36,178 bases of DNA from Thermoanaerobaculia bacterium (GCA_023700825.1 JAMPYE010000003.1:1-36178); one strand, 5' to 3'; numbered from the stretch's first letter, positions 13,638 to 32,314 are shown. Numbers and translations are program-made. The notes: generated by a model from the sequence alone, not told the origin.

Positions 13638-13649
13638 CGGATCGCACCC

Positions 13650-16481: not shown

Positions 16482-16496
16482 CGGAGGGTTCCCCCC

Positions 16497-18506
16497 GTGG
16501 TTCCTCTTATTGGTCGTACCCTGATCCTGCTGTCTCTTCTCGCGGCGGCTTCGGGCGCCATCATCGCGTTCACCGCGGGCTCCCGGAAGAGCGTCGTCGG
16601 AGCGCTTTGGGCCCGGCGGTTCGCGTACACCTACGCGATCCTCATCTCGTCGGCGAACTTCCTGATGATCTACGCGCTGATCGCGCACGACTTCACGGTC
16701 GGGTACGTCGCGCAGGTCGGCTCGCGGGCCACTCCCCTCTGGGTGACGATCTCGAGCCTCTGGTCGTCGCTCGAAGGATCGATCCTGTTCTGGGGCCTGG
16801 TGCTCGGCATCTACGTCTTCGTCGCGACGTGGACCTGCCGCAAGCACTACCCGGAGCATCTGCCTTACGCGATCGCCGTGTGGCTTGCGTGCGGCGCGTT
16901 CTTCAGCTTCCTGCTCGCGGGCCCGGCGCAGCCGTTTCACACCGTGCTGAACCCGCCGATGGACGGCCCGGGACCGAATCCGCTCCTTCAGAACCACGTC
17001 CTGATGGTACTGCACCCGCCGTTCCTCTACCTCGGCTACGTCGGAATGACGATCCCCTTCGGTCTCGCGTCGGCGGCGCTGCTCGTCGGGCGGCTCGGGC
17101 ACGAGTTCCTCCGTCCGCTTCGCACCTGGCTGCTGCTTCCGTGGACGTTTCTCACGGTCGCGATCGTCATGGGTGGCTGGTGGGCTTACGAGGTTCTCGG
17201 ATGGGGCGGCTACTGGGCCTGGGATCCCGTCGAGAATGCGTCGTTCCTGCCATGGCTGACCGCGACGGCGGCGCTTCACTCGGCGCTCGTCATGGAGCGA
17301 CGCTCGATCCTCAAGGGTTGGACCGTCACGCTCGTGATGGCGAGCTTCCTGCTGACGGTCCTCGGCACATTCATGACGCGCTCGGGCGTGTTCAACTCCG
17401 TTCACTCGTTCACGCAGAGCTCGATCGGACCCACGATCCTGGCATTCCTTGCGGTCTCGCTCGTCTGGTCGGTGCTGATCCTCGCAATGCGCGTCGATCA
17501 TCTCTCCGCCGAAGGTCAGATCGATTCGGGCAAGAGCCGCGAGGGCGCGTTCCTCGCGAACAACCTGCTCTTCGTGCTCTTCACCTTCACGGTGCTGATC
17601 GGCACGGTCTTCCCGCTGGTGGTCGAGGCGGTCAAGGGCGTGCAAATGAGCGTCGGAAGCCCCTACTTCAACAGGATGTCGGTGCCGATCGGTGTTGCAC
17701 TGCTGTTTCTCATGGGCGTCGGTCCGGCGCTTCCGTGGGGAAGGGCGACGAAGCAGCAGATGATCAAGGCTCTCGTTCCGCCAATCATCGGCGGAGTCAT
17801 CCTGCTCGCGATCGGTTTCGCTGTCGGCGCGCGCAACGCATGGACGCTGCTGGCTCTCTTCTTCGGCGGATACACGGCACAGGTGACCCTGCGTGAGATG
17901 TGGCTGCCGCTCGTCCAGAGGATGAAGGGAGGCGCGGGCATCGGCCAGGCGCTCGTCGAAGGCCAGCTCGTTCGCGGGCGCCGGCGTTTCGCCGCGTACG
18001 TCGTTCACGCGGCGGTCGTGGTCATCATCGTTTCGATCGCGGTGTCGAGCACGATGCAGCAATCGACAGAAGTGCAGCTGATGAAGGGCCAGTCGGCGAA
18101 GATTGGCCCGTACGAATTGACGCTCCAGGGCGTCGAGACGGTATCGGAGGCGCATCGAGAGGGAGTGCTCGCGAGGCTCTCCGTGACGAAGAACGGCAAG
18201 CCCAGCGGCGAGATGCTGCCGCGGATGAACTACTACGCGATGAGCAAGGATCCGATCGGCACGCCCGAGGTTCGGACGACGCTCACGCACGACCTTTACC
18301 TGTCGATCATGAACATCGACGAGCGCTCGCAGTCGGTCGGCCTTCACCTGATCATCAACCCGATGGTCGGCTGGATCTGGATCGCGACTGGAGTCATGGC
18401 GCTCGGCGGCTTCATGGCGACCTGGCCGACGAAGTCACGACGCAACGAGGCAATTCTGCGTGACGCCGCGCAAGCGCGCGGAGGAGAGGCCGTCGTTGAA
18501 TCGTAA
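16497..18506 (+). CDS. ccmF: Heme lyase CcmF
   Basis: WSSLEGS, NPLLQN, HPPFLYLGY, WAYEVLGWGGYWAWDPVENAS, GTFMTRSG and SVHSF. GTG start follows GGAGG. Confidence 0.96.
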   Translation: MVPLIGRTLILLSLLAAASGAIIAFTAGSRKSVVGALWARRFAYTYAILISSANFLMIYALIAHDFTVGYVAQVGSRATPLWVTISSLWSSLEGSILFWGLVLGIYVFVATWTCRKHYPEHLPYAIAVWLACGAFFSFLLAGPAQPFHTVLNPPMDGPGPNPLLQNHVLMVLHPPFLYLGYVGMTIPFGLASAALLVGRLGHEFLRPLRTWLLLPWTFLTVAIVMGGWWAYEVLGWGGYWAWDPVENASFLPWLTATAALHSALVMERRSILKGWTVTLVMASFLLTVLGTFMTRSGVFNSVHSFTQSSIGPTILAFLAVSLVWSVLILAMRVDHLSAEGQIDSGKSREGAFLANNLLFVLFTFTVLIGTVFPLVVEAVKGVQMSVGSPYFNRMSVPIGVALLFLMGVGPALPWGRATKQQMIKALVPPIIGGVILLAIGFAVGARNAWTLLALFFGGYTAQVTLREMWLPLVQRMKGGAGIGQALVEGQLVRGRRRFAAYVVHAAVVVIIVSIAVSSTMQQSTEVQLMKGQSAKIGPYELTLQGVETVSEAHREGVLARLSVTKNGKPSGEMLPRMNYYAMSKDPIGTPEVRTTLTHDLYLSIMNIDERSQSVGLHLIINPMVGWIWIATGVMALGGFMATWPTKSRRNEAILRDAAQARGGEAVVES

Positions 18507-19020
18507 AGTTCTCATCGCCGGCCTCGTCATCGTCGTTCCGTTCATCGTCCTGCTGGTGATGAACCTTGGGCGCGACCCGCACAAGGTCGACTCGCCGCTG
18601 ATCGGTAAGGCGTCGCCGCCGTTCTCGCTGCGACAGGTTGGAACACCCGCCGTCGTCGACATCATGTCGCTGCGCGGCAAGCCCGTCGTCCTGAACTTCT
18701 GGGCGACCTGGTGCGTGCCTTGTTATGCCGAACACCCCGTGCTCGTCGCGGGCGCCCGCCAGTACGCGGACAAGGCGCAGTTCGTCGGCGTCGTTTACGA
18801 CGACCAGGAGAACAAGATCGTCCAGTTCCTCGCCGAGAACGGGTCGAGCTACCCGACGCTGTTCGACGAGTCGGGGCAGACCGCGATCGCCTTCGGCGTC
18901 TACGGTGTGCCCGAGACGTTTTTCCTCGACGCGGACGGAAAGATCGTCGACAAGCACGTCGGCCCGCTCGATCCCGCCACTCTCGAAGCCAAGCTCCGGC
19001 TCGCCGGGGCATTCAGGTGA
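18496..19020 (+). CDS. ccmG: Thiol-disulfide oxidoreductase CcmG/DsbE (TlpA family)
   Basis: N-terminal TM, LNFWATWCVPC and GVYGVPETF. TTG 18496 follows GGAGGAGAGG. Confidence 0.92.
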   Translation: MNRKVLIAGLVIVVPFIVLLVMNLGRDPHKVDSPLIGKASPPFSLRQVGTPAVVDIMSLRGKPVVLNFWATWCVPCYAEHPVLVAGARQYADKAQFVGVVYDDQENKIVQFLAENGSSYPTLFDESGQTAIAFGVYGVPETFFLDADGKIVDKHVGPLDPATLEAKLRLAGAFR

Positions 19021-19025
19021 GTCCG

Positions 19026-19664
19026 ATGACATTCCGCCACACCATCGCGCGACGGTTCGTGCTCGCGTTGACGCTGCTCATGCTCGTGCTTCCCCTCGCG
19101 GCGCAGGCGCCCGAGCGGTCGGACGAGATCAAGTCGCCCGATCCGAAGTGGGTCGTCGGCGATCCCGCGGGCCCGCCGCGGACGGGTGTAGAGCTCGAGA
19201 AAGAAACCGCGCGTGTCGCGAGCCTTCTGCGCTGCCCGGTCTGCCAGGGGCTCTCCGTCAACGACTCGCCTGCCACGATGGCGCAGAACATGAAGCGCCA
19301 GGTGCGCGACCTCGTGGCGAAGGGCTACTCCGAAGAGCAGGCACTGCTCTATTTCGAGCGCGCCTACGGAGAGTTCGTGCGCCTCGAGCCGCCGCTCCGC
19401 GGGGTGAACTGGCTCGTCTGGGCCGCGCCCGTCGCGCTGCTCGTCATCGGGGGGTTCTTCGTTCTCTTCATGATGAAGCGGCTGCAACGAGCACCGAAGA
19501 ATGTCGAGGTCGCGAGCGTCGACTCGGCGACGCCGGGTCGTGACACGCTTCCCGACGACGAGCATCTTGCGCACTACGTGCTTCGCACGCGCGAGCTGGC
19601 CTATGGCTGGCCGGGCGGGCTCTCGCCCGCGTCGCGCGGCGAGGGCGGGGAGGAGTCGCGATGA
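19026..19664 (+). CDS. ccmH: Cytochrome c biogenesis protein CcmH (CycL)
   Basis: Signal peptide, LRCPVCQG motif, YGEFV, C-terminal TM. Confidence 0.92.
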   Translation: MTFRHTIARRFVLALTLLMLVLPLAAQAPERSDEIKSPDPKWVVGDPAGPPRTGVELEKETARVASLLRCPVCQGLSVNDSPATMAQNMKRQVRDLVAKGYSEEQALLYFERAYGEFVRLEPPLRGVNWLVWAAPVALLVIGGFFVLFMMKRLQRAPKNVEVASVDSATPGRDTLPDDEHLAHYVLRTRELAYGWPGGLSPASRGEGGEESR

Positions 19665-21097
19665 TGATGCTGATGCAGGCACCACCAGTCGACTGGACCC
19701 TGCCGATTGCGATGCTCCTCGGCGGGCTCGTGATCGGTACGATCGTCGCGATCGTCGTCTCGCAACGGAGCCCGAAAACGCGGAAGGACGACGCCCCCCT
19801 CGACGCCAACTCGCACGAGCTCGAAGTCCGCGATCTCGGTGCGAAGCGCGACTCGCTCTTCGACCAGCTTCGCGAGCTCGACGACACGAGCGCGAAACGC
19901 GACGCCGATCAGCTTGCCGTCGAGCGCTACGAGCTCGAGCTCGAAGCGGCGAGAACGCTTCGCCGGCTTGACGAGCTGACGGGACGCCACGCGCCCTCGA
20001 AGCGCAGTGCTCCCGGCGCGAAGGCTGTCGCGGCCGCCGCTCCGGCAGTCGAGGTCGAGACGGTCGTCGCTCCCCCGAGTCCAGTGAAGGGATTCCTCTG
20101 GGGAATCGGCAGCGCAGCCGCGATCGTCGCCCTCGTCTTCTTCGTCGCGAAGTCGGCGGACGAACGGGGCGACGGTGGCTCGATGACCGGCAACATCCCG
20201 GGTGGTGGAGGCATGCAGTCGGGAGACGGCGCGCCGCAGGATCCCGAGATGCAGCAGCTGCTCTCGCGCGTGCAGGCAAATCCGAACGACCTCGACCTTC
20301 GTAACGAGCTCGCGTTCCAGCAGCTGATGCGCGAGCAGCTCATGGGAGTGTTCGAGACGACGCAGTACGTTCTCGAGCGACGGCCCGGCGACCCTGCGGC
20401 GATGACCTATCAGTCCGTCGTACGGCTCGCGATGGGGCAGTCGGCCGAAGCGGAGCAGATGCTGAAGCGAGCGATCGAGGCGCGGCCCGACCTGCTCGAC
20501 GCGCGCGTCTACCTCTCGCTCACGTACGCGCAGCTCGGACGCTATGACGAGGCCAAGGCAGCCATCGACGAGGCGATCCGCCTGAGTCCCGCCGAGGCCG
20601 ACCGTCTCCGCCAGCTCTGGTCGCAGATCGAAGCGCAGAAAGCCGCGGGCCCTCCGCCGTCGACCGCGGGGAAGAAGGACGATCCTCATGCCGGCATCGC
20701 ACTCCCGCCGATGAGCGGAGAAGGCGTGCAGCCCGCCCAGGCGCCGCCATCGACGGCGTCGTCGGATCCGCGCGCGGTGCGCGGAACGCTGACGCTCGCC
20801 GCGGGGGGGAGCGTGCCGCGAGGCGCGGCCGTGTTCCTGATCGTGCGCACGGCCGGAGCGAAAGGCGGCGCGCCCGTGGCGGTCGCGCGCGTGGACGCCG
20901 GCTCGTTCCCGCTCGCGTTCGAAGTCAGCCTCGCGAACTCGATGATGGGGCAGCCGCTTCCCGACTCCATGCTCATCGAGGCGCGCGTCGATCTCGACGG
21001 CAACCCGATGACGCGCGATGCCGGTGCCCCGTCCGGGTCCGCCGACAACGTCGCAGCGGGATCTTCGGGAGTGAAGATCGATCTCTCGGTTCGCTGA
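19661..21097 (+). CDS. ccmI: CcmI/CycH-type TPR apocytochrome chaperone
   Basis: TM-(LRELD coiled coil)-TM, TPR repeats and a C-terminal Ig-like domain (AVFLIVR...PVAV...FPLAF...NSMM...EARV) typical of CycH. ATGA coupling. Confidence 0.85.
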   Translation: MMMLMQAPPVDWTLPIAMLLGGLVIGTIVAIVVSQRSPKTRKDDAPLDANSHELEVRDLGAKRDSLFDQLRELDDTSAKRDADQLAVERYELELEAARTLRRLDELTGRHAPSKRSAPGAKAVAAAAPAVEVETVVAPPSPVKGFLWGIGSAAAIVALVFFVAKSADERGDGGSMTGNIPGGGGMQSGDGAPQDPEMQQLLSRVQANPNDLDLRNELAFQQLMREQLMGVFETTQYVLERRPGDPAAMTYQSVVRLAMGQSAEAEQMLKRAIEARPDLLDARVYLSLTYAQLGRYDEAKAAIDEAIRLSPAEADRLRQLWSQIEAQKAAGPPPSTAGKKDDPHAGIALPPMSGEGVQPAQAPPSTASSDPRAVRGTLTLAAGGSVPRGAAVFLIVRTAGAKGGAPVAVARVDAGSFPLAFEVSLANSMMGQPLPDSMLIEARVDLDGNPMTRDAGAPSGSADNVAAGSSGVKIDLSVR

Positions 21098-21210: not shown

Positions 21211-22512
21211 ATGGATAACTCGCTGCAGGGTAATCTCGGTCATTTCTCTCTCCATGACGTTCTTCGCTTCCTCGCGGACGGAGGACGTACGGGAACGATG
21301 AAGCTCACCAGCGGCGGCCGCGAAGCCATCGCGTGGCTCGACGGAGGCGCGATCGTCTTCGCCTGGTCCAACCAGGAGCAGATGCGGATGCCGCTCGTGC
21401 TGGCGCGGCGCGGAAAGCTGACGAAGGATCAGCGCGCACGGCTCGAGGAGCTCGCCAAACAGGAAGGCGAGCGCTTCGCGCAGGCGGCGATCAAGCAGGG
21501 TGTGTTCAAGGCCGATCAACTCCGCGACCTTTCCGCGGAGTACGTCGCCGAAGTGATGATCGACGCTCTCCTCTGGGACGGCGGTTCGTTCGGATTCTCG
21601 GTCGAGCTGGCGCTTCCCGACTCGGCGGTTCCGGTGCTGCTCAAGGTCGACGATCTGCTCGAGCGCGGCGCGAAGCGCGAGGCCGAGTGGGCGGAGTGCC
21701 GCAAGCTCTTCCCGAACCCCGCTCAGGCCTTCCAGGTCATGGGCGACCCCGAGGCCGACGAGAAGATCACGCTCAGCGTCACGCAGTTCAAGACGCTGCT
21801 CAAGATCAAGGAACTCGGCGCCGCGAGCGTCGAACAACTCTGCCTGATGCTCGACCGCGATCCTCTCGAGACCTACCGGACCATGGACGGCCTCCGCACT
21901 GCGGGGCTGATCGTCGAATCGTCGGCGCCCGTTGCCGTCGCGACTGCGCCAGCCGTCAGGCCGGTGCCTCCTCCACCGGCTCCCGCTCCTCCCGTCGTCG
22001 CCGCGCCCCCCCCGCCGCCGCCGGCACCGGAGCTCGAGAGCGAGGACGATGTCCCGACGGCAGTCGCGGACTGGCGTGATCAGGTCGCGCATCCCGCACC
22101 CGATGCCGCTGGCATTCCGGAACCGGAGCCGACTGTTGCCACGCCGCTGGCTTCGTTCCGTCCCGCGCCGGAGCCGTCGATCGAGTCGCTCATCGGAGTG
22201 CTCACGCTCGACAATGCCGACAAGACTTCGTTCCCTCTTTTCGAGACGGAACACTCGGTCGGACGCGAGGCGAACAACTCGATTCAGGTTCCCGACTCGA
22301 GCGTCTCGGGGGCGCACGCACGGATCCGGAAGACGCCCGAGGGATATCTGCTCGAGGATCTGAACAGCCGAAACGGAACGTACGTGAACGGCGAACGGAT
22401 TCAGACCCGCCTGCTTCGGAACGACGACAAGATCCGTCTCGGCAAGGTCCACATGGTGTTCAACCTGCCGACTCAGATGCAGCCGCCGAAGACGACGGCC
22501 CCGGGCGACTAG
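21211..22512 (+). CDS. DUF4388 (PATAN-like) domain, Pro-rich linker and C-terminal FHA domain
   Basis: N-terminus LQGNLGHFSLHDVLRFL...RTGTMKL...GAIVFA...WDGGSFGF. FHA residues VGR, VSGAHA and DLNSRNGTYVNG are intact. Confidence 0.88.
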   Translation: MDNSLQGNLGHFSLHDVLRFLADGGRTGTMKLTSGGREAIAWLDGGAIVFAWSNQEQMRMPLVLARRGKLTKDQRARLEELAKQEGERFAQAAIKQGVFKADQLRDLSAEYVAEVMIDALLWDGGSFGFSVELALPDSAVPVLLKVDDLLERGAKREAEWAECRKLFPNPAQAFQVMGDPEADEKITLSVTQFKTLLKIKELGAASVEQLCLMLDRDPLETYRTMDGLRTAGLIVESSAPVAVATAPAVRPVPPPPAPAPPVVAAPPPPPPAPELESEDDVPTAVADWRDQVAHPAPDAAGIPEPEPTVATPLASFRPAPEPSIESLIGVLTLDNADKTSFPLFETEHSVGREANNSIQVPDSSVSGAHARIRKTPEGYLLEDLNSRNGTYVNGERIQTRLLRNDDKIRLGKVHMVFNLPTQMQPPKTTAPGD

Positions 22513-22539
22513 CGTCGGCGGTCTCTCGTCGGCGCATTG

Positions 22540-22580
22540 ACGGCGCTTCACGCAGCGAGCTGCGCGAAGCGCCGTTTTTC
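22540..22580 (+). terminator. Probable intrinsic terminator after the DUF4388-FHA gene
   Basis: ACGGCGCTTC-a-CGCAG-cgag-CTGCG-c-GAAGCGCCGT followed by TTTTC. Confidence 0.7.
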
Positions 22581-22664
22581 GTTGTGCCCGCGCGTCGTTT
22601 TCGAATGGTGCAGCGCGTGCGTCGCGGACTGACCGCGCAGGGCTTCCCGGCGTTCGCGAAACGC

Positions 22665-22735
22665 TTTCAAAAGAATTCACATTTGGATGTGAGTTGTGCT
22701 AAAACTCAACTCGTTTCCAAAAACTAAAGTTCGGA
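22665..22735 (+). promoter_or_regulatory. AT-rich putative promoter/operator region of the redox operon
   Basis: Local drop in GC. Palindrome TCACAT-ttgg-ATGTGA (22677-22692) and overlapping inverted repeat GAGTTG-N10-CAACTC (22691-22712). Weak TTCACA-N18-TAAAAC promoter match. Confidence 0.55.
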
Positions 22736-22759
22736 TGAACGGAGAAGCTCGGCGAAGTC

Positions 22760-25159
22760 ATGAGCTCACGCCAGAGATTTGATCTCATCATCGTCGGCTC
22801 GGGCCCCGCGGGTATTGCAACCGCGTCGCACGCGCACGACAACGGCATCAACTACGTGCTTCTCGAGAAGACTGACCATCTCTCGGACACGATCTTCTGC
22901 TATCAGGCACGCAAGTACGTCATGGCGGAGCCGATGGCGATCCCCGCGCGCGGCGACGTGCCGTTCGAAGCGGGATCCCGCGAGCAGATTCTCGGAGCAT
23001 GGGAATCGCACGCGAAGAACAAGCAGCTGAAGGTCGAGTACAACAAGGAAGTCAAGTCGGTGAAGAAGGTCGGCGCGACCTTCGAGGTCAAGGCCGCCGA
23101 CGGCAGCGAGTACGAAGGCAAGTGGGTCGTGCTCGCGATGGGAACGCAGGGATCGCAGCGCAAGCCCGGGTGCCCCGGCGAGGACATGTCGCACGTCCTC
23201 TATCGCCTCGCGGATCCTTCCGAATACGCCGAGAAGGACATCATCGTCGTCGGCGCCGGCGATTCCGCGATCGAGATCGCTGTCGCGCTGGCCGACGAGA
23301 ACCGCGTGAGCCTCGTCGTGCGCTCGGCGGAAATCGTCCGTGCGAAGGACAGTCTCATTCGCGAGGTGCTCACGCGGCAGGCGCAGGGCAGCATGACGGT
23401 CTACTACGGCACGACGCTGAAGGAGATCACCCTCGGCCATACCGACCTGAACGTGCGCGGAGAGACCGTTCGCGTTCGGAGCGACTACATCTTCCTGAAG
23501 CTCGGAGCCGACGCGCCCCGGAAGTTTTTCGAGTCGATCGGCGTGAAGTACACGAGTTCCGACAAGGACGCGCGTCCTTCGCTGACGCCGCAGTACGAGT
23601 CGGTCGACGTTCCTGGGCTGTTCCTGATCGGCGCCGCGAGCGGTCGCGACCTGGTCAAGCTCGGCATGAACCAGGGGTGGGAAGTCGTCGAGCATCTCTG
23701 CGGACGCAAGGTCGATCCGGCCGACGAGGCCGTGCTCAAGGAGCGGCTGCCGCACTGGAGCGGTTCCGTCGTCGAGCGAATGCAGCAGATCAAGCAGCGC
23801 GTGCCGCTGCTGGCCGCGGCCGACGACGAGAATCTCCGCGAGATGTTCCTCTCGACGAACGTGCGTGAATACCGCGACGGCGAGGCGATCATCCGCCAGA
23901 ACGACTACACGAACGAGTTTCTCATCATCGCCGAGGGGCGCGTGCAGCTCTGGGTCTCTCCGGAGGGATCGAAGGAGCAGCGGAAGATCACGACGATGAC
24001 CGCGGGGAACTTCTTCGGCGAGATGAGCCTGATCTCCGGCCGCCGCCGCACGGCAACGGCGATCGCGGAAGGACCCACGCGGATCATCGAGGTTCCGCGC
24101 AAGGCGATTCTCAAGCTGCTCGTCACGTCGCCGCGAGTGAAGGATCTCGTCGACCAGGCGTTCCTGATCCGCGCGATCCAGGGATATCTCTTCGGCGACA
24201 CGCCCGCGACGGTGCTGGGCGAGCTCGCCGCCAAGGCGACGATGATCACGCTCGCCAAGGATGCACCGGTGTTCAAGGAAGGCGATCCGGGCGACGCGTT
24301 CTACCTGATCCGCAACGGCATGGTGAAGATCGGCAAGACTTCGAACGACAAGGAGATCGTCCTTTCGTATCTCGTCGCCGGCAACTTCTTCGGCGAGTCG
24401 GCGCTGCTCGAGGGCGCGCCGCGCACCGCGACCGTGACGACGATCTTCCCGTCGGAGCTGATCAAGCTTTCGAAGCGGGACTTCGACCAGTTCCTCGACA
24501 GTCAGCCCGAACTGAGGAAGAAGCTGCTCAAGAAGCTCGAAGACCGGCGCGTGCTCAGCCTCATCGCCGAGGCGACGCCGGGGTCGGGGAGCATCCTGAA
24601 CGACCTGATCCGCGAAGAGGTCGTCATGGGAACGCACTCGCTGATCATCGACAACCACAAGTGCGTGCGGTGCAGCAACTGCATCCGCGCGTGCGAGGGG
24701 GTCCACGCCGACGGGCAGTCGCGCCTCTCGCTCACGGGCATCCAGCTCTACAACCTGCTCGCGCCGAACTCGTGCTGGCAGTGCCAGAACCCGATGTGCA
24801 TGCTCGACTGTCCGCCCGACGCGCTCACGCGCGACCCGCGCGGCGAGGTCTACATCCGCAGCAACTGCATCGGCTGCGGCAACTGCGAGAGGAACTGCCC
24901 GTACGGCAACATCTTCATGGTGCATCCGAAGCATGAAGGCGGCGGTCTGTTCGGCTGGATCAAGGGACTCTTCAGCAAGGAGAAGGCGGCGCACGACGAG
25001 GTCGAACGCACGCTGGCGGTCAAGTGCGACCTCTGCCGCGAGATCAGCGGCGGGCCGGCGTGTGTTCGCAGCTGTCCCACGGGCGCCGCGGTCCGGCTCA
25101 CTCCCGAGGAATACCGGGGCACACTCGAGGAACTGGTCATCATGAGAGGAGAGCGTTAG
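22760..25159 (+). CDS. Fusion of TrxR-fold FAD/NAD(P)H oxidoreductase, two cNMP-binding domains and a 4x[4Fe-4S] DmsB/NrfC-like domain
   Basis: IIVGSGPAG and VVGAGDSA dinucleotide motifs. cNMP cassettes FFGEMSL...RTATA and FFGESAL...RTATV. Cys groups CVRCSNCIRAC, CWQCQNPMCMLDCP, CIGCGNCERNCP and CDLC-x8-CVRSCP (16 Cys). Confidence 0.92.
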   Translation: MSSRQRFDLIIVGSGPAGIATASHAHDNGINYVLLEKTDHLSDTIFCYQARKYVMAEPMAIPARGDVPFEAGSREQILGAWESHAKNKQLKVEYNKEVKSVKKVGATFEVKAADGSEYEGKWVVLAMGTQGSQRKPGCPGEDMSHVLYRLADPSEYAEKDIIVVGAGDSAIEIAVALADENRVSLVVRSAEIVRAKDSLIREVLTRQAQGSMTVYYGTTLKEITLGHTDLNVRGETVRVRSDYIFLKLGADAPRKFFESIGVKYTSSDKDARPSLTPQYESVDVPGLFLIGAASGRDLVKLGMNQGWEVVEHLCGRKVDPADEAVLKERLPHWSGSVVERMQQIKQRVPLLAAADDENLREMFLSTNVREYRDGEAIIRQNDYTNEFLIIAEGRVQLWVSPEGSKEQRKITTMTAGNFFGEMSLISGRRRTATAIAEGPTRIIEVPRKAILKLLVTSPRVKDLVDQAFLIRAIQGYLFGDTPATVLGELAAKATMITLAKDAPVFKEGDPGDAFYLIRNGMVKIGKTSNDKEIVLSYLVAGNFFGESALLEGAPRTATVTTIFPSELIKLSKRDFDQFLDSQPELRKKLLKKLEDRRVLSLIAEATPGSGSILNDLIREEVVMGTHSLIIDNHKCVRCSNCIRACEGVHADGQSRLSLTGIQLYNLLAPNSCWQCQNPMCMLDCPPDALTRDPRGEVYIRSNCIGCGNCERNCPYGNIFMVHPKHEGGGLFGWIKGLFSKEKAAHDEVERTLAVKCDLCREISGGPACVRSCPTGAAVRLTPEEYRGTLEELVIMRGER

Positions 25160-25161
25160 GC

Positions 25162-25992
25162 GTGCCAATCCCGCGTTACGGTGTCCGCTGGCGCATCATC
25201 GCCCTCGTTCTGACGATCGGGCTCGTCGCGTCGTACGTCTGGTACCAGGGGCGCGAGCCGTTCACTCACGGTGGAACGCCGACGGGCCTCATCTACGGCT
25301 TCGTCGCCCTCTTCATGATGGGGTTCCTGCTTTATTTCGGCATCCGGAAGCGCGCCTACCGCAGTCGCTTCGGCACCCTGCAGGAGTGGTTGCACGCACA
25401 CATCTGGCTCGGTCTCTTCAGTTTCTTCGTGATCGTGGCCCATACCGGCCTCCGCTTTCAGGACAAGATTGCCGTGGCGCTCTTCGTGGTGATCGTCGGG
25501 GTGATCGCCACGGGCATCTTTGGGGCGCTGCTCTACAAGACGATTCCGAGAGAGCTGACGGAGATCCAGTCGAACCTCACGGGGCAGGAGATCTCCGACC
25601 AGCTCAATCAGCTTTCGAAGGCGATGGCGCGAATCGCGTCGGGCAAGTCGTCGCCGTTCCAGAGGATCTACTACAGTCTCCAGCGCGAGGCGATGCCGGG
25701 ATTCCTGGCGGGCTGGAAGCTCATCCTCTCGAGCGGCAAGCGGAACGAGAAGGCGGGAGACTGGACCGGCCTGGTCGGGATGGTCGAGAAGAGCGAGCAA
25801 GACGAGCTTCGTCAGTTGCTCGTCGCCTCGCGCCAGCAGAAGGAGCTGCATCTTCGCCTCGTCTACCAGCAGCGCTACCGCAACATTCTCGATTTCTGGC
25901 TCTACCTGCACATTCCCCTGTCGGTTGCGATGATCGTGCTGATCTTCGCGCACGTGTGGGGTGTCTTCTACTACGGCGTGGTCAAGTTCTGA
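25162..25992 (+). CDS. Inner-membrane protein, probable di-heme cytochrome b (ferric-reductase-like TM domain), 276 aa
   Basis: GTG lies 2 nt after the upstream stop. About 5 TM helices, two of which carry His pairs spaced i/i+14: HIWLGLFSFFVIVAH and HIPLSVAMIVLIFAH. Confidence 0.75.
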   Translation: MPIPRYGVRWRIIALVLTIGLVASYVWYQGREPFTHGGTPTGLIYGFVALFMMGFLLYFGIRKRAYRSRFGTLQEWLHAHIWLGLFSFFVIVAHTGLRFQDKIAVALFVVIVGVIATGIFGALLYKTIPRELTEIQSNLTGQEISDQLNQLSKAMARIASGKSSPFQRIYYSLQREAMPGFLAGWKLILSSGKRNEKAGDWTGLVGMVEKSEQDELRQLLVASRQQKELHLRLVYQQRYRNILDFWLYLHIPLSVAMIVLIFAHVWGVFYYGVVKF

Positions 25993-26035
25993 GGACGCGA
26001 GCCCCGCGAGACGGCTCGACGAGATACGGCGAACG

Positions 26036-28435
26036 ATGAGCTTCATCATTCAGAGGATCGAAGGCTCCAAGGTCATTCTTCGGGAGCACAAGGGCTCGAC
26101 GCTGCGGATCGGACGCGGCACGGATGCGCAGCTCCGATCGGAGAATCCGGTCGTTGCCCTCGAACACGCCATCATCGAGGCGCTCGAGTCGGGCTACGAC
26201 ATCGTCGACCGCGGCAGCATCACCGGCACCTACCTGAACGGCAGGACGATCGAGTCGAGCCGGCTCGGCAAGGGTGACGAGATCGAGATCGGCGACCTTC
26301 GGATCACGGTGCAGTCCGCCGACGCGGGCCGGCCGCTCTTCATCCGCGTCGAGGAGACCGACGAGGAGAGCGCCGCCGACGAGGACATTCCGGTGCCCGT
26401 GGGCACCGTCGCTCTCCCTCGGCCCGCTCCCGGAGGCGTGCTCAAGGCGCCGCGCGTCGACTACGTCGCGTCGTATCAGCTGCAGCGGAAGTTCCTCTCG
26501 AAGACCGTCGTGGCGTGGATGGCGATTCTCGTCGCTCTCACGACGCTCGGACTCGTCACCGTCGGCAACCAGCAGGTGGCGTTCCGCCCCGGCAAACTCT
26601 CCGTCGCGCACACCCAGGCCGCGGTCGAAGGCGTGCGACTGATCGGCGAGAGCAACTGCAGCGCGTGCCACGCGCCGTGGGGCGGCGCGACCGACGAGAA
26701 GTGCCAGGCATGTCACAAGCAGGCCGGTCACCAGGAAGGCCTCGCGCAGGTTGGCGCATGCACGGCGTGCCACACCGAGCACCGCCAGCTCGCGAATCTC
26801 GGCGAGGTCTATCAGCGCGAGTGCCTCGCGTGCCACAAGGAACTGCAGCCCGATCCCGGCAAGACGCTTCGCGTCGCGAAGAACATCACTGCGTTCGAGA
26901 AGGACCATCCCGAGTTCAAGCTCACCATCCTCGCCGGCGGCAAGGAGACGAAGGTCAGCCTGAGCGACCCGAAGGGTCGTTCGGCCGACGCCAATCGCTT
27001 CAAGTTCAACCACCAGTGCCACGTCGTCGGCACCTGCAACAAGCGACCCCCGACGATCGAGAACCCGGTCCAGGAAGTCGAGAAGCTGACGTGCGACTCG
27101 TGCCACAAGGTTCAGGGCGACACGGGCATCATCGACGACCGCTCGTACGACAAGTACTGTGCGCGCTGCCACCCTCTCACCTTCGACAACCGCTTCCCGC
27201 CGGTTCCTCACCATCTGAACCTGCAGACCGTCGCCGGCTACATCGCCAACGCCTACTCTGGAAACCAGAACATCCTGAAGATGAGCGCCGAGGAAGTCAC
27301 TCGCGTCTTCGCGTCGGGCTCGTCGAACCAGATCAACGTGGGAAGCGAGATCGTCCGCAGCGCGCAGCGAACGGTGCAGGCGCGATGCAAGGTCTGCCAC
27401 GACTTTCAGCCTAACGGGGAGGCCGTGCGTCCGCCGACCAAGTCGAACCGCTGGTTCAAGGGCCAGCGCGTCTTCGACCACGGCAAGCACCTCAACGAGA
27501 GCGTCAAGACCAAGTGCATCGACTGCCACGAAGGCGTGGTCGAGAGCAAGAAGACGTCCGACGTCAACATGCCGGGCATCAAGACCTGCGTCGGCTGCCA
27601 CAAGGCGGCGAGCGAGTACAAGGACAAGGGCATCGAGACGTGCCAGACGTGCCACGCGTACCACTCGCTGACGGTGTCGCAGGGAGCGGGTTGGACGCTC
27701 AAGGCCTCCGTCATTCCTGCGGAGATGCGACTCATCGCGCTCGGAGGCAAGTCGGAGTCGCAGCAACCCGGCAAGCCGGCGACGAACCGCTTCGCGGTAC
27801 CCCTTTGGGCGGCGTTCGCCGTGCCGATCGGCCTGGTCGTGCTCATCGGAGTCGTCGGCGGGTTGCTCGGCGCGATCCGTGCGCGCGCCGCCGCTCCGAC
27901 TCCTCCTCCCGCGCCGCCCAAGCCCAAGGGCGGAGCGCCGAAGCCCGCACCTTCCGCCGCGCCCGCTGCGCCCCCGAAACCCGCAGCCCCGAAACCTGCT
28001 GCGCCTAAACCGAAGCCGGCGCCCCCGCCTCCTCCCGTTCTTCCCGAGAGCACGGTGGCGATGGATCTCTCCGAAGTGAAGCGTACGGTCGCGGAGGCGC
28101 TGCCGGCGGGACCGACGGTGAATGCCGAGTACTTCGGCAGAATCGCCTTCACCGGAGGGAAGTTGTCGGGACAGAGCTTCACGATCGATCCCGACAAGGG
28201 TCTCTTCATCGGACGAGACCGCGAGGTCGCGAGCGTCGTGATCGATGACTCCCGCATCTCGAGACGCCACACGTGGGTCGGCGTTAGGGACGGCAAGGTC
28301 GTCGTGGTCGATCAGAAATCGACCAACGGCACGTACCTGGAGTCGACTCAGAACCGGATCACCGAGGCGGAGTTGAAGGAAGGCGCAGTCGTGATTCTCG
28401 GGGAGAACGCGGCGAGTTTCAGGTATGAGCGCTGA
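26036..28435 (+). CDS. FHA - TM - decaheme cytochrome c - TM - Pro-rich linker - FHA, 799 aa
   Basis: Ten CxxCH motifs (CSACH, CQACH, CTACH, CLACH, CDSCH, CARCH, CKVCH, CIDCH, CVGCH, CQTCH) between two hydrophobic helices. FHA motifs at both ends (IGR...HA...GTYLNG; IGR...SRRH...STNGT). Confidence 0.92.
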   Translation: MSFIIQRIEGSKVILREHKGSTLRIGRGTDAQLRSENPVVALEHAIIEALESGYDIVDRGSITGTYLNGRTIESSRLGKGDEIEIGDLRITVQSADAGRPLFIRVEETDEESAADEDIPVPVGTVALPRPAPGGVLKAPRVDYVASYQLQRKFLSKTVVAWMAILVALTTLGLVTVGNQQVAFRPGKLSVAHTQAAVEGVRLIGESNCSACHAPWGGATDEKCQACHKQAGHQEGLAQVGACTACHTEHRQLANLGEVYQRECLACHKELQPDPGKTLRVAKNITAFEKDHPEFKLTILAGGKETKVSLSDPKGRSADANRFKFNHQCHVVGTCNKRPPTIENPVQEVEKLTCDSCHKVQGDTGIIDDRSYDKYCARCHPLTFDNRFPPVPHHLNLQTVAGYIANAYSGNQNILKMSAEEVTRVFASGSSNQINVGSEIVRSAQRTVQARCKVCHDFQPNGEAVRPPTKSNRWFKGQRVFDHGKHLNESVKTKCIDCHEGVVESKKTSDVNMPGIKTCVGCHKAASEYKDKGIETCQTCHAYHSLTVSQGAGWTLKASVIPAEMRLIALGGKSESQQPGKPATNRFAVPLWAAFAVPIGLVVLIGVVGGLLGAIRARAAAPTPPPAPPKPKGGAPKPAPSAAPAAPPKPAAPKPAAPKPKPAPPPPPVLPESTVAMDLSEVKRTVAEALPAGPTVNAEYFGRIAFTGGKLSGQSFTIDPDKGLFIGRDREVASVVIDDSRISRRHTWVGVRDGKVVVVDQKSTNGTYLESTQNRITEAELKEGAVVILGENAASFRYER

Positions 28436-28443
28436 TTTCCGGG

Positions 28444-28472
28444 TTGACAAGACACGGATCCAAGGTTACGTT
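28444..28472 (+). promoter_or_regulatory. Putative sigma70-type promoter upstream of the GlcG/HbpS-like gene
   Basis: TTGACA (28444-28449), 17 nt spacer, TACGTT (28467-28472) in a 64-nt intergenic gap. AAGGTG RBS before ATG 28500. Confidence 0.6.
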
Positions 28473-28499
28473 TTCGCCACAACTTAAAAAGGTGAATCG

Positions 28500-30269
28500 A
28501 TGAGCCCAAGAGCCTTGCATCGTGGGGTAGTACGCCGTTTTCTGCTCATTTTCACGATATCCCTGCTGGTCGGCGCGGGCGCAGCGCTGGCGCAGCCGAC
28601 TCCTCCCGACTGCGCGGGAGTCGACGTCGTCGGTTCTCCCTGTCGCGACGGGCGCCCCGGGGGGATCGAGGCGGCGGAGGGATCGTTCCTTCCGCTCAAC
28701 GCCGACGAGGTGAGAAGCCTGGCGGTGACGGCGTCGGTTCTGATCGACGATCCGAAGATCACCGTGGCGGTGGTCGATCGGGCAGGCAGGGTTCTCGCGA
28801 TCGTGAGAAATCCCGAGGCCGACCCCGCGAACGACGAGTTGGCAGTGGGCGTCGCGCGCACGTCAGCGTTCTTCAGCCACAACACCGCGCCGCTCTCGTC
28901 GCGCACCGTGCGTTTCATCAGCAGCCTGCACTTCCCACCTGGCGTGAAGAAGGCCTACGAGAACGCGCTGTACGGGATCGAGAACACCAATCGCGGCTGC
29001 GACTTCAACCTTCAGTTCAACGCGGGAAAGTGCATTCCCCGCGCGACTTCCGTCGTCAATGCCGGACCCTGCAACGGGCTCGACAACTCCGGCTGCGGGC
29101 CGGGGATCGTGACGGGCAAGCCGCAGCCGTTCGATCAGCACGAGGACGGGAAGCACCCGGCGCCGATCGGACTGCAGGGACCCTTCAACCCGGGCGGTCT
29201 GCCGGTCAATGCGGGCGGCATTCCGCTCTACCGCATCGGCAGTTTCGAGATTCTCAAGGGAAGCCTCGCCGAGGGCAATGCGAAGGTCGAAGTCGAAGGG
29301 CCCAGCTACATGGTCGGAGCCATCGGAGTCGCGGGCGTGTCGTCGGACCACGCGGAGTTCGCGGCGTTCGGCGCGGCCGCGCTCGGAGTCCCCGGGGTCA
29401 TCTTCCCGGCTCCGTCGTTCCCCGAACTGCCGCGGCCCGGGCGAGTCATCATCGACGGAATCCGCCTTCCTTTCGTCGACCAGGGGTTTCGTCCGAAAGG
29501 CACGAGGCAGGCGGCGGCGGCTTCGGGGACGTTCATCGTCGGTCCGAATCCCGGAGGGTGCGTCGGCAACCGTTATCTCGCCGGGCCGATCGGATCGCCC
29601 GAGCTGAGCCGTGACGAGGTGGACGGGATCATTCGCCGCAGCGTCGCGACCGCGCAGAAGACGCGCGGATACATCCGCCTTCCGCTGAACTCCTACTCGC
29701 GGATGGTCATCGCCGTCTCCGACCTGAACGGCAACATCCTCGGGCTCTATCGCATGCCGGACGCGACGATCTTCTCGATCGACGTCGCGGTGGCGAAGGC
29801 TCGCAACGTCGTCTACTTCAGCGGCGCAGGAAACTCGGATCTGCCCGGCGTGCCGGTGGGTACCGCGGTCAACGCCCGCACGCTCGGTTATGCCGGCTCC
29901 CCGCTCTTCCCGGGTGGCATCGATTTCACGGACCCGGGGCCGTTCTTCGACATCTTCCTCAACGACCTCGCCAACGCCTGTTCACAGGGGTTCCAGGCGC
30001 CTAACGCCAACCAGAACGGGATCGTCTTCTTCCCGGGCTCGACGCCGCTCTATCGGAACGGGGTTCTGGTCGGTGGCCTCGGGATTTCCGGGGACGGCGT
30101 CGACCAGGACGATTACGTGACGCTCAAAGGAGCAGCAGAGTTCTACCCCGATCCCTCGATCTGGGCCGATCGCGTGAAGATCGACGGAGTCCGACTGCCG
30201 TACCTCCACCTTCCCCGCCAGCCGGAAGGCGTAACCGAGAAATTCATTGAGCCCTTCGATGAGCCATAG
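28500..30269 (+). CDS. Exported protein with two GlcG/HbpS-like heme-binding domains
   Basis: Signal peptide ending ALA-Q. Domain 1: VAVVDRAG...ART...GGIPLY...VGAIGVAG. Domain 2: IAVSDLNG...AVAKARN...PGSTPLY...VGGLGISG. Confidence 0.82.
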   Translation: MSPRALHRGVVRRFLLIFTISLLVGAGAALAQPTPPDCAGVDVVGSPCRDGRPGGIEAAEGSFLPLNADEVRSLAVTASVLIDDPKITVAVVDRAGRVLAIVRNPEADPANDELAVGVARTSAFFSHNTAPLSSRTVRFISSLHFPPGVKKAYENALYGIENTNRGCDFNLQFNAGKCIPRATSVVNAGPCNGLDNSGCGPGIVTGKPQPFDQHEDGKHPAPIGLQGPFNPGGLPVNAGGIPLYRIGSFEILKGSLAEGNAKVEVEGPSYMVGAIGVAGVSSDHAEFAAFGAAALGVPGVIFPAPSFPELPRPGRVIIDGIRLPFVDQGFRPKGTRQAAAASGTFIVGPNPGGCVGNRYLAGPIGSPELSRDEVDGIIRRSVATAQKTRGYIRLPLNSYSRMVIAVSDLNGNILGLYRMPDATIFSIDVAVAKARNVVYFSGAGNSDLPGVPVGTAVNARTLGYAGSPLFPGGIDFTDPGPFFDIFLNDLANACSQGFQAPNANQNGIVFFPGSTPLYRNGVLVGGLGISGDGVDQDDYVTLKGAAEFYPDPSIWADRVKIDGVRLPYLHLPRQPEGVTEKFIEPFDEP

Positions 30270-32298
30270 AACGAACGCACTCGCTCTTGCCGCGGCGGTT
30301 CTGATCGCCGTGGCCGCGCTCGGCGCGCACGCCGAGGATCTGACGCTGACGATCGGGGTGTCGGCAGACACGCCGGTCTACGCACACACCGCGAGGCCGG
30401 AGATCGCCGGCTCGACGAACGCCCCGCCCGGTTCGGTCGTCGCCATCACGATCGACGGACAGACGCAGAACGCGCAGGTCGGCGAGGACGGCAAGTTCTC
30501 CGTCGAATGGGGCATCGACCTCGAGGTCGGGTCGCACCTGGTCAGCGCGAGCGTTTCGACTGCCGACGGCCGGAGCGCGAAGGCCGAGCAGGATCTTCGC
30601 GTCGACCTCGAAGAGTTCATGCCGCGCCAGCCGATCGAGCCGCTTCTGATTCCGGAGCCGCTCCCGCGGATCGTCCCGAACATCGAGGACTTCGCCGCGT
30701 ACACCGACCGCTGGCAGATCTCCCCGCCGGCCGACTACGAGTTGCAGGTGTCCCCGCGAGGGAAGTGGGATCCGTACAACCAGAACATCCTCAAGGGAGA
30801 CAAGCCTCGCTTCGGCAAGGACATCTTCCTGAACCTGACCGGAATCTCCGACTTCCTCGTCGAGATCCGCGACCTGCCGACGCCCACGGGCATCTCGACC
30901 GACGACCCGACCTCGTTCCCGTTCTTCGGTGACAGCGAGCAGGTCGTCATGAACCAGAACGTCGTGATGACCGCGGACCTCTACAAGGGCCTGACCACCT
31001 TCCGCCCCGCGACGTGGCGTGCCCGCGCCACCCTGGTGGGCAACGTGAACCACGTGATTCTGCAAGAGGCGAACGCCGTGAACATCGACGTGCGAGAGGG
31101 GACCGATCGCACGGATGGAACCTTCGCCGTGCAGGAGCTCTTCTACGAACGCAAGCTCGCCGACCTGACTGAGAGCTTCGACTTCATGTCGATCCGCGCC
31201 GGGGTGCAGAGTTTCGTCAGCGACTTCCGCGGCTTCATCTTCAACGACCAGAACCTCGGTGTCCGTTTCTTCGGCAACTGGGACGCGAACCGTTACCAGT
31301 ACAACGCGGCTTTCTTCGATCGTCTCGAGAAGGACACCAACAGCGGGCTCAACAAGGTGGAGCGGCGCGAGCAGCAGGTGTTCATCATGAACGCCTACCG
31401 GCAGGACACGTTCGTGCCGGGTTACACCACTCAGGTCAGCTTCCACTACCTCCACGACGATCCGTCGGTGTACTACGACAAGAACGGCTTTCTCGTGCGC
31501 CCTGCGCCGGTCGGTGACTTCGTGCCGCACGAAATCGACGCTTACTACCTCGGCTGGTCAGGGCTCGGCAAGGTCGACGTCTGGAACGTCGATCACGCGT
31601 TCTACTACGTTACCGGCAAGGACAGTCGTAGCCCGATCGCGGGCTCGGATCCGCTCGGCGGCGGAGTCGGCAACGACGGCGTCACGCCGGGTTCGGCCGA
31701 GGTCGACATCAACGGGTACATGGGCTTCGTCGAGATCTCGCGCGACTACGACTGGCTTCGCCCGAGGGCGGCGATCTTCTTCGCGTCGGGAGACGACGAC
31801 CTGTACGATCGCGACGCGGAAGGCTTCGACGCGGTCTTCTCTAACGTGAACGCGCTCGGCGGCGGCTTCAGCTTCTGGAACCGCCAGGGAATCCGTCTTC
31901 CTGGGACGGGCGTCGGCCTCACGCAGCGCGGAAGCCTCCTGGCCGACCTGACGAGCAGCAAGGACGAAGGGCAACCGGAGTTCGTGAACCCGGGCGTGCA
32001 GATCGCGAGCGTCGGACTCGACGTCGACGTCACCCCGAGGATCAAGGCGATCTTCACGACGAACTACATTCGCCTGGCCAAAACCGAGGTCGTCGAGGGC
32101 CTGATCTTCCAGGACGACGTCGACAAGGAGATGGGGCTCGACGTGAGCCTCGGCGTCCGTTACCGACCGTTCTTCTCGAACAACATGACCGTCCTCGGTG
32201 GCGCGGCGATGTTCGCGCCTGGCTCGGGCTGGGAAGACATCTACGAAGACGACGATCTGCACTGGCAATTCTTCACGACACTGACTCTGCAGTTCTGA
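30259..32298 (+). CDS. Outer-membrane beta-barrel protein with N-terminal Ig-like domain, 679 aa
   Basis: Signal peptide (AHA-E). Bacterial Ig-like segment (PEIAGST...GSVVAITIDG...VGEDGKFSV). Many amphipathic strands and C-terminal BAM-type signal FFTTLTLQF. Overlaps the upstream stop. Confidence 0.8.
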   Translation: MSHRTNALALAAAVLIAVAALGAHAEDLTLTIGVSADTPVYAHTARPEIAGSTNAPPGSVVAITIDGQTQNAQVGEDGKFSVEWGIDLEVGSHLVSASVSTADGRSAKAEQDLRVDLEEFMPRQPIEPLLIPEPLPRIVPNIEDFAAYTDRWQISPPADYELQVSPRGKWDPYNQNILKGDKPRFGKDIFLNLTGISDFLVEIRDLPTPTGISTDDPTSFPFFGDSEQVVMNQNVVMTADLYKGLTTFRPATWRARATLVGNVNHVILQEANAVNIDVREGTDRTDGTFAVQELFYERKLADLTESFDFMSIRAGVQSFVSDFRGFIFNDQNLGVRFFGNWDANRYQYNAAFFDRLEKDTNSGLNKVERREQQVFIMNAYRQDTFVPGYTTQVSFHYLHDDPSVYYDKNGFLVRPAPVGDFVPHEIDAYYLGWSGLGKVDVWNVDHAFYYVTGKDSRSPIAGSDPLGGGVGNDGVTPGSAEVDINGYMGFVEISRDYDWLRPRAAIFFASGDDDLYDRDAEGFDAVFSNVNALGGGFSFWNRQGIRLPGTGVGLTQRGSLLADLTSSKDEGQPEFVNPGVQIASVGLDVDVTPRIKAIFTTNYIRLAKTEVVEGLIFQDDVDKEMGLDVSLGVRYRPFFSNNMTVLGGAAMFAPGSGWEDIYEDDDLHWQFFTTLTLQF

Positions 32299-32314
32299 CC
32301 GAGGCACGCGCGCC

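Follow-up and report, generated by a model that had tools for sequence, protein, structure and literature searches.

A flavoprotein with tandem cyclic nucleotide-binding domains and a four-cluster iron-sulphur module as candidate input of a proposed trans-membrane electron path in Thermoanaerobaculia

The subject of this study is a gene of 799 codons at positions 22760–25159 on the + strand of a 36,178-nucleotide (nt) stretch of DNA from a Thermoanaerobaculia bacterium (GCA_023700825.1, JAMPYE010000003.1:1–36178), which is called the window below. The product (the target) consists of a flavoprotein domain, two cyclic nucleoside monophosphate (cNMP)-binding domains and an iron-sulphur (FeS) module with motifs for four [4Fe-4S] clusters. 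A protein of this kind has been catalogued before: among the cyclic nucleotide-binding (CNB) families of Kannan et al. 2007 (Genome Biol 8:R264, PMC2246266), family 13, 'Bact_Pyrredox', comprises 38 sequences and is a catalogue entry without experiments. The target answers the description of the family, with Pfam domain Pyr_redox_3 at residues 10–291 and two cNMP_binding stretches, and the cassette of its first cNMP domain (domain A), GEMSLISGRRRTATAIA, is identical to the family consensus, GEMGLISGRRRGATVRA, at 13 of 17 positions. The passages of that survey devoted to the family differ from what is found here in that they mention neither a C-terminal FeS module nor partners nor a function.

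Parts of the locus also resemble two described groups of multihaem cytochrome clusters. The relevant portions of the 2024 preprint by Elbon, Stewart and Glass (bioRxiv 10.1101/2023.11.21.568154) present a cluster, ptdABCDEFG, in which PtdE has cNMP and 4Fe-4S domains, PtdF is ferric-reductase-like and PtdG is a decahaem cytochrome, and they call the function of the cluster 'completely unknown'. The order PtdE-PtdF-PtdG, that is, a cNMP/4Fe-4S protein followed by a membrane protein and a decahaem cytochrome, is also, by description, the order in the window. However, the flavohaemoprotein-like PtdC is a separate protein, whereas the target has a YpdA-type flavoprotein as its own N-terminal part; the Ptd cNMP protein is stated to have two clusters, whereas the target has 16 cysteines for four; and the decahaem cytochrome in the window, unlike that of ptd, is membrane-anchored with an FHA domain at both ends. 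He et al. 2017 (PMC5566968), in the sections on clusters PCC3 and PCC4, characterised the inner-membrane protein of these clusters by five transmembrane (TM) helices, a W-x3-H-x13-H motif on both TM3 and TM5, and S-G-x-x-G on TM4, and likened it to the two-haem ferric reductase domain; in PCC4 subgroup II, a gene for a pfam13247 Fe-S protein lies just upstream of it. The membrane protein encoded next to the target displays all three traits, again by description. The PCC4 clusters, from Proteobacteria and Planctomycetes, contain multihaem cytochromes of 4, 5 and 10 haems and were modelled as taking up electrons to quinone, and cNMP domains have 0 occurrences in those sections (PMC5566968). Likewise, neither cNMP nor FHA is mentioned (0 occurrences) in a 2026 preprint on porin-cytochrome clusters of peat Acidobacteriota.

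Among the seven open reading frames (ORFs) at 21211–36094, the part of the window that was scanned for CxxCH haem-binding motifs (positions 1–21210 lie outside that scan), the penta-haem (PtdA in ptd) and tetra-haem (PtdD) genes of the PtdE-F-G and PCC4 clusters were not found; CxxCH motifs occur in just two proteins, both decahaem, with 10 each. A separate FAD/NAD(P) oxidoreductase gene is likewise missing, the flavoprotein being fused to the target, and a porin is represented at most by the candidate product of 30247–32298. The kind of protein is already in print, as a catalogue entry of uncharacterised function, and the acidobacterial operon represents its own variation on PCC4/ptd, set apart by the fused flavoprotein, the FHA-flanked decahaem cytochrome and the decahaem cytochrome with LVIVD repeats. 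We propose that the target, as a soluble protein of the cytoplasm, provides the input for a conserved, cNMP-regulated trans-membrane electron path that runs from NAD(P)H outward, a reading to which we give about an even chance of being correct.

A first-pass annotation of the window had described 22760–25159 as a cNMP-gated oxidoreductase, and both the gene and all the sequence details listed for it were recovered in our analysis. The 799 open codons end at a TAG stop (25157–25159), and GC content at third and second codon positions (GC3 0.88 versus GC2 0.42) is like that of other + strand genes in the window, which has an overall GC content of 65%; an antisense ORF overlapping the target shows the mirror GC2/GC3 pattern. 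In Pfam, Pyr_redox_3 is matched with E 2.3e-39 and cNMP_binding, in two places, with E 1.5e-43, and residues ~628–781 match several Fer4 models. Of the 8000 candidates scored in a word-indexed search, 3625 were homologues at E≤0.001; the best 120 of these (with the query's own entry excluded) are all 789–807 amino acids (aa) long, have the same domain set and are 67–88% identical to the target, so that the gene lies far beyond chance. Those of the best 120 that are assigned to a named organism come from Thermoanaerobaculia or other Acidobacteriota, and in their source databases the proteins are called 'cyclic nucleotide-binding domain-containing protein', 'NAD(P)-binding domain-containing protein' or 'hypothetical protein'. 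The AlphaFold2 (AF2) model of the target, computed from a family alignment, has a mean predicted local distance difference test score (pLDDT) of 84.0 and a predicted TM-score (pTM) of 0.70. When the whole chain was searched with Foldseek, matches in the PDB were to single modules only (query TM-score, TMq, ≤0.36), and no PDB structure with the complete domain arrangement was found by this search. Judged by its sequence, the target is a soluble cytoplasmic protein in which a NAD(P)H-type flavoenzyme, cNMP sensors and a four-cluster FeS wire are joined.

More distant relatives were collected with HMMER from 1.84 billion cluster representatives, which gave 924 matches at E≤1e-30. The best 150 of these included 44 full four-domain forms and 35 split forms of ~440–550 aa that contain only the cNMP-cNMP-FeS part; named members of the distant clusters come from metagenome-assembled genomes (MAGs) of Nitrospira and Pseudomonadales. 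Conservation of arginines and cysteines was scored in 242 of the 269 proteins P0002–P0270, which remained once 27 with lengths below 400 or above 1300 aa had been removed; another 44 distant sequences could be assigned neither to the full nor to the split class.

The C-terminal part of the target is a HycB/HydN-like ferredoxin module at residues ~625–785 (24632–25114, +). The 16-Cys, four-cluster domain of the first-pass annotation is borne out by four cysteine motifs (635/638/641/645, 672/675/680/684, 703/706/709/713 and 756/759/768/772), of which all 16 cysteines are invariant in 29/29 aligned homologues, in 119/119 close orthologues and in the 44/44 distant full-length forms, and complete in 31 of the 35 split forms. 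Sequence matches in the PDB are to HycB3, HycB4 and HycB, that to HycB3 (7qv7_A) extending over residues 627–780 (E 6e-17), and the nearest NCBIfam models are the FeS parts of AegA, HydN, DmsB and NrfC, all far below their equivalog cut-offs (53.8 bits versus 260 for HydN, NF007658). Modules of the HycB/HydN/AegA type (7qv7, 7z0s) have four cysteine motifs in the same order as the target, and AegA and YgfT also pair a four-cluster module with an NADPH flavoprotein, but these proteins differ from the target in equivalog score, flavoprotein type and domain order. No hydrogenase or formate dehydrogenase partner is encoded in the conserved cluster of the target.

At the other end of the protein, residues ~5–330 (22772–23749, +) form a YpdA/Bdr-like domain for binding of flavin adenine dinucleotide (FAD) and NAD(P), with the Rossmann motifs GSGPAG and GAGDSA. 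The nearest solved relative of residues 5–300 is Bdr/YpdA (7a76, E 2.2e-25; Foldseek target TM-score, TMt, 0.85–0.86 for 7a76 and 7a7b), which has the same two-Rossmann layout. The target differs from it by the fusion to sensor and FeS modules, by a score below the family cut-off (TIGR04018, 138.4 bits versus 339.9) and by an alanine for the motif cysteine, since GGGPCG of 7a76 aligns to GSGPAG. In Bdr/YpdA the cysteine of this motif is catalytic. The place of the CxxC motif of low-molecular-mass thioredoxin reductase (TrxR; TIGR01292, 74.4 bits versus a cut-off of 343.45) is taken in the target by HVLYRLADPSEY (residues 145–156), directly before the second Rossmann motif, VVGAGDSA. Furthermore, when 29 full-length homologues, the most divergent at 29% identity, were aligned, no cysteine before C635 proved invariant. 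The earlier description of a TrxR-fold part without catalytic CxxC, of the electron-transferase rather than the disulphide reductase type, is therefore upheld, the best relatives being Bdr/YpdA notwithstanding. The suggestion that VR-x5-RAK indicates NADPH fared less uniformly: the motif itself is present (V187-R188-x5-R194-A-K) and R188 is at least 90% conserved in the 29-sequence alignment, while a preference of the domain for NADPH is plausible by analogy.

Between these two modules lie cNMP-binding domain A (residues ~340–470; 23777–24169, +), with the cassette G420-E421...R430-T431, and domain B (residues ~477–600; 24188–24559, +), with the cassette G545-E546...R555-T556. The full cassettes read FGEM..GRRRTATA (419–434) and FGES..GAPRTATV (544–559), and the two stretches matched by PF00027 (147.1 bits versus a gathering cut-off of 27.5) each have the Gly-Glu pair and the arginine. 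The tandem region aligns in one piece with residues 134–368 of PKA-R and with the PKG tandems, and the first-pass annotation was right both about the intact cassettes and about the PKA/PKG-type arrangement. According to predicted secondary structure and the AF2 model, the long C-terminal helix of domain B (583–605) runs straight into the FeS module, and in the model the helical stretch before domain A directly continues the last helices of the flavoprotein. Both features would suit a switch, since in PKA, Epac and CAP such helices are the elements that shift upon cNMP binding.

The cassettes are kept by nearly all close orthologues, 116 of 119 having the Gly-Glu pair and the arginine in both; the arginine alone is found in 119/119 for domain A and 116/119 for domain B. 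Among the 44 distant full-length forms, 29 retain the arginine of domain A and 32 that of domain B, with 25 having both, 8 neither and 36 at least one, and among the 35 split forms 27 have both, none lacks both and all 35 have at least one. Sequence conservation of this sort indicates that ribose-phosphate binding is under selection in most lineages and can be lost without loss of the FeS wire. In addition, one homologue, P0181, lacks the cNMP domains and has the flavoprotein joined directly to the FeS module; together with the arginine-less variants that retain the 16 cysteines, it argues that the cNMP domains are a regulatory add-on and not a part of the wire. As to the ligand, the threonine after the cassette arginine had been taken to favour cyclic GMP (cGMP). 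HCN channels have Arg-Thr as well, yet they prefer cyclic AMP (cAMP). The cGMP inference is weak because the residue varies within the family (107 of the 119 close orthologues have threonine and 10 asparagine, and the 44 distant forms include 12 with serine and 8 with threonine) and because PRTA is, in the consulted parts of Kannan et al. 2007 (PMC2246266), the consensus of several unrelated CNB families, channels included.

The window encodes no class III cyclase, as had been noted, and its two GGDEF proteins make cyclic di-GMP (c-di-GMP), not cNMP. For these c-di-GMP signalling proteins, GAF-GAF-GGDEF at 5476–7200 (+) and PAS-GGDEF-EAL at 9057–11219 (−), no connection with the cluster was seen. 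Outside the window, the genome from which it derives (4.7 Mb, 90.84% complete) does encode four class III cyclase domains, one of them in an FHA+GAF+cyclase protein (locus L081, 463–2127, +, on contig C361) and another in a DUF5939+cyclase protein. The FHA-GAF-cyclase was an attractive candidate for a dedicated partner, given the FHA-rich operon, but homologues were found in 256 of 401 sampled Acidobacteriota genomes (a tally that takes in the unpublished genomes G024, G049 and G150) and in 8/8 of the family of the window's genome, with or without the target, and the candidate was therefore set aside for want of specific co-occurrence. The first-pass annotation had suggested a search of the genome for class III cyclases that co-occur with the cluster; cyclases are present, and the one tested shows no specific tie to the target. 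Full-length orthologues of the target itself are present in 8 of the 401 genomes, namely G000, 6 of the 8 others in its family and the single member sampled of a sister family (1/1), and 13 more genomes, G049 among them, match just residues ~410–790.

What the target feeds is defined by its membrane partner and by the chain of cytochromes beyond it, neither of which the first-pass annotation had noticed. The partner (25162–25992, +) is a protein of 276 aa with five TM helices, a putative di-haem cytochrome b, the GTG start codon of which lies 2 nt past the stop codon of the target. W76-x3-H80-x13-H94 is located on TM3 and W246-x3-H250-x13-H264 on TM5, so that two H-x13-H pairs lie on two parallel TM helices as in the ferric reductase transmembrane domain, and the four histidines are invariant in 21/21 orthologues. 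TM4 carries T-G-I-F-G, which fits S/T-G-x-x-G. Positive charges place the N-terminus, the loop 62–75 and a loop of ~110 residues (126–240) in the cytoplasm. A further conserved feature is H36-G37-G38 in the first periplasmic loop, which is invariant or nearly so in the 21 orthologues and possibly serves, on the side of the cytochromes, as a contact or ligand site. The partner could not be assigned formally to the ferric reductase domain family, its Pfam score being below the cut-off and its AF2 model having 0 Foldseek matches in the PDB.

Complex prediction with residues 600–799 of the target and the partner yielded an ipSAE of 0.45 (0.44, 0.45 and 0.51 in individual runs), against 0.01 for the best control; in these runs the partner had a pLDDT of at least 75 and contact agreement was at least 83%. 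The docking mark was passed by 58 of 80 solved complexes and by 2 of 110 mismatched pairs, and the range up to 0.60 contained just 7 of those 80 solved complexes together with both passing mismatches. The models thus lend weak support to docking of the FeS module on the membrane protein. The arrangement would follow the logic of NOX and FRE enzymes, in which, as here, a cytoplasmic NAD(P)H flavoprotein would pass electrons to two stacked b haems on two H-x13-H helices and thence outward under tight regulation. Those enzymes differ in having an FNR-like flavoprotein rather than a TrxR-like one and six TM helices rather than five, and in the window an FeS wire is interposed. The proposed system would work like NOX/FRE without counting as a member of that group, given these differences, the sub-cut-off Pfam score and the lack of a fold match.

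The genes around the target form a conserved unit. Gene order was counted in 80 genome loci, the best among 337 that are related, the denominators being loci with enough flanking sequence (at least 900 nt in the case of the membrane gene). The membrane gene follows the target in 74/74 loci and is itself followed by the gene for the FHA-flanked decahaem cytochrome in 63/64, and further downstream an HbpS-like gene is present in 51/54, a barrel-like gene in 48/49 and an LVIVD decahaem gene in 45/47. Upstream, a gene for a DUF4388 + FHA protein (21211–22512, +) precedes the target, and an FHA part is found at most 700 nt upstream of the target in 53/74 loci. In the window, the decahaem cytochrome c (26036–28435, +; the ATG at 26036 was chosen as start, the ORF being open from 25961) has 10 CxxCH motifs enclosed by two TM helices, and both of its cytoplasmic ends carry an FHA domain, in the order FHA, TM, ten CxxCH, TM, a proline-rich linker and FHA. 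As predicted from this order, a redox chain in the periplasm is combined, unusually, with signalling of the phospho-threonine type in the cytoplasm. It is followed by genes for a secreted protein with HbpS-like domain or domains (28500–30269, +; PF03928 in two matched stretches), for a secreted protein of 683 aa with a terminal phenylalanine (...TLTLQF) and no family match (30247–32298, +), and for a secreted LVIVD-repeat protein of 1259 aa with 10 CxxCH (32315–36094, +). The product of 30247–32298 is a possible outer-membrane barrel of the conduit; its homologue clusters in the protein atlas are named 'hypothetical protein' throughout.

That the encoded parts belong to one machine is argued for by the repeated linkage or fusion of the flavoprotein, the sensor-FeS protein, the membrane protein, multihaem cytochromes and FHA domains. 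Besides P0181, there are homologues with flavoprotein and cNMP domains but no FeS module (P0185, P0203), with an extra ferredoxin domain after the flavoprotein and before the cNMP domains (P0130) and with a pair of FHA domains preceding the four domains (P0142). The split cNMP-cNMP-FeS homologues are 30–37% identical to target residues ~320–785. In 13 metagenome loci with a complete split gene, a membrane-protein homologue lies directly downstream in eight and upstream in one, and three contigs end too soon; the remaining split locus, L087, has no membrane homologue but contains the LVIVD decahaem and barrel-like homologues side by side. In two loci (L089, L090) a separate YpdA-like gene lies just upstream of the split gene. 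In another (L094), an ORF of 1314 aa (10465–14409, +) combines FHA domains and nine CxxCH motifs with a YpdA-like domain at its C-terminus, and this fusion adjoins the split cNMP-cNMP-FeS gene and a membrane-protein homologue.

In the path proposed here, NAD(P)H, probably NADPH, would reduce the FAD of the YpdA-like domain, from which electrons would pass to the four [4Fe-4S] clusters of the C-terminal module. The latter would dock at the cytoplasmic face of the five-TM protein, and electrons would cross the membrane from the inner haem b (H80/H250) to the outer haem b (H94/H264), to be delivered to the membrane-anchored decahaem cytochrome, the secreted HbpS-like, barrel-like and LVIVD-decahaem proteins and, presumably, a terminal acceptor. 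Binding of cAMP or cGMP to the tandem cNMP domains would re-orient the flavin relative to the first FeS cluster and thereby open or close the path, and the FHA domains of the operon might add a phospho-threonine input. The outward direction is favoured because a NAD(P)H-type flavoprotein stands at the cytoplasmic end, because it agrees with the membrane potential and because a drain of this kind would need the heavy regulation that is seen. Tight gating would be sensible, as in eukaryotic NADPH oxidases, since outward flow through the haem pair drains NAD(P)H and runs with the membrane potential. Domain identities, ligand motifs, gene linkage and the joining and splitting of parts were observed directly; from these we infer cofactors, docking, flow direction, terminal acceptor and an effect of cNMP.

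Several observations weigh against this proposal. For the partner, the Pfam match to Ferric_reduct (PF01794) reaches 21.6 bits against a cut-off of 28, its AF2 model (pLDDT 78.9) has 0 fold matches in the PDB at E≤0.001 in Foldseek, and the docking score counts as weak. The tested FHA-GAF-cyclase does not track the target, being present in G040 and G326, which belong to the same family and lack the target. Eight of the 44 distant full-length homologues have lost the arginine of both cassettes, yet have all 16 cysteines, which means that cNMP binding is not needed for the core function and that a scaffold role may exist. A measured cofactor, ligand or activity for any member of the family was not found in the literature searched. 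Finally, for the related PCC4 membrane protein, the relevant section of He et al. (PMC5566968) draws the opposite direction, with coupling to quinone.

That same hardware could run inward, with electrons supplied by Fe(II), reduced humics or the like outside the cell or in the periplasm and passing through cytochromes, di-haem protein, FeS clusters and FAD to NAD(P)+, and clusters of the PCC4 type do occur in Fe(II) oxidisers, for which the inward model was drawn (He et al., PMC5566968, in its PCC4 section). FNRs of the TrxR type are reversible in principle, and 3lzw, 3ab1 and 2zbw are among the fold relatives of the target. Bioenergetic reasoning speaks the other way: inward flow through the haem pair would oppose the membrane potential, transfer from donors at the level of Fe(II) to NAD(P)+ would be uphill, and no energy-coupling subunit belongs to the conserved cluster, so that we regard this direction as decidedly improbable. 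It is improbable, too, though somewhat less so, that the membrane protein is a quinone-reactive cytochrome b, with the flavo-FeS protein serving an NAD(P)H:quinone or quinol-linked side branch. He et al. (PMC5566968, same section) liken the two H-x13-H motifs to those of cytochrome b in the bc1 complex and in hydrogenase, and Pfam gives a weak hint of Ni_hydr_CYTB (E 0.0074); every Pfam match of the membrane protein is, however, below its cut-off, and no quinone-site motif was identified in it. Moreover, the translationally coupled, soluble four-cluster wire already constitutes a cytoplasmic redox partner, which is sometimes annotated as one gene with the membrane protein (PMC5566968, in part).

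If electrons follow the proposed route, the cNMP domains might still act as a rigid spacer or dimerisation scaffold, or bind another ligand, which we consider unlikely. Domains of the CAP fold can bind other ligands, no cyclase co-varies with the gene (one cyclase having been tested), and the eight homologues without both cassette arginines keep their domains and cysteines. Conservation of the cassettes in 116/119 orthologues, and of at least one arginine in 36/44 distant full-length and 35/35 split forms, is instead the signature of selection for ribose-phosphate binding, and the Bact_Pyrredox family has a canonical cassette in its catalogue entry (Kannan et al., PMC2246266). A thiol-disulphide reductase of the Bdr/TrxR type, with FeS and cNMP parts as sensors, would account for Bdr/YpdA and TrxR being the top sequence and fold matches of residues 5–300 and for database names such as 'thioredoxin reductase' or 'YpdA family'; it is contradicted by the sequence, which has no CxxC, an alanine for the Bdr cysteine, no conserved cysteine in the domain and scores far below the NCBIfam cut-offs, and it is extremely improbable.

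Taken further, the proposed outward path would make the operon a counterpart of NADPH oxidase and ferric reductase that bypasses the quinone pool, an 'electron valve' that would pass cytoplasmic NAD(P)H electrons via the FeS wire and the haem-b pair to periplasmic or extracellular multihaem cytochromes, with a second messenger shifting the flavin and FeS modules against each other and FHA domains as second input; we put this forward tentatively, as a possibility that we hold to be doubtful. If true, allosteric gating of an intramolecular electron-transfer chain by a cyclic nucleotide would be seen here for the first time, the nucleotide acting directly on the electron path of a redox enzyme and not on transcription, a kinase or a channel. 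We know of no characterised enzyme that is controlled by a cyclic nucleotide on its internal electron path. It would also show how electrons enter a widespread class of cytochrome clusters without assigned role. Related forms occur in Acidobacteriota and in Nitrospira and Pseudomonadales MAGs and, as far as the sections cited above describe them, in marine PCC4/ptd clusters. Such clusters have been linked, speculatively, to the cycling of iron, manganese, humics or nitrogen in soils, groundwater and oxygen-deficient waters. The hypothesis lends itself directly to tests in vitro because the target is predicted to be soluble and its motifs are clear.

Directly upstream of the cluster, 13650–21097 (+) encodes all the components of cytochrome c maturation by system I (CcmA, B, C, E, F, G and H together with a TPR/CcmI-like protein). 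The ccm genes were examined as a possible part of the cluster and left out of the conserved unit, because those queried accompany it only in L001 and L002, the two closest relatives. Homologues of FdhD or MoaA did not turn up in a partial look at related loci, in which neither was used as query. A perfect 6+4+6 palindrome, TCACATTTGGATGTGA, is located at 22677–22692, within an AT-rich intergenic stretch and 83 nt before the start codon of the target. As a regulator site it was dismissed: a scan for half-sites TCACA and TGTGA, spaced 4–8 nt apart in either order, matched 1 of 79 upstream regions, that of the window itself, and the palindrome is absent even from L001 and L002, which are 93–97% identical. 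Library X1, with 0.94 of the sampled words, is probably the sample from which the window comes. Since DNA may occur in metatranscriptome libraries and a contig is not equivalent to a transcript, library X19 provides a hint only that the operon is expressed; its short contigs, 91–98% identical to the window, map to the target, to the HbpS-like gene and to both gene junctions, spanning the target/membrane-gene junction at 24991–25214 and the membrane-gene/decahaem junction at 25760–26020.

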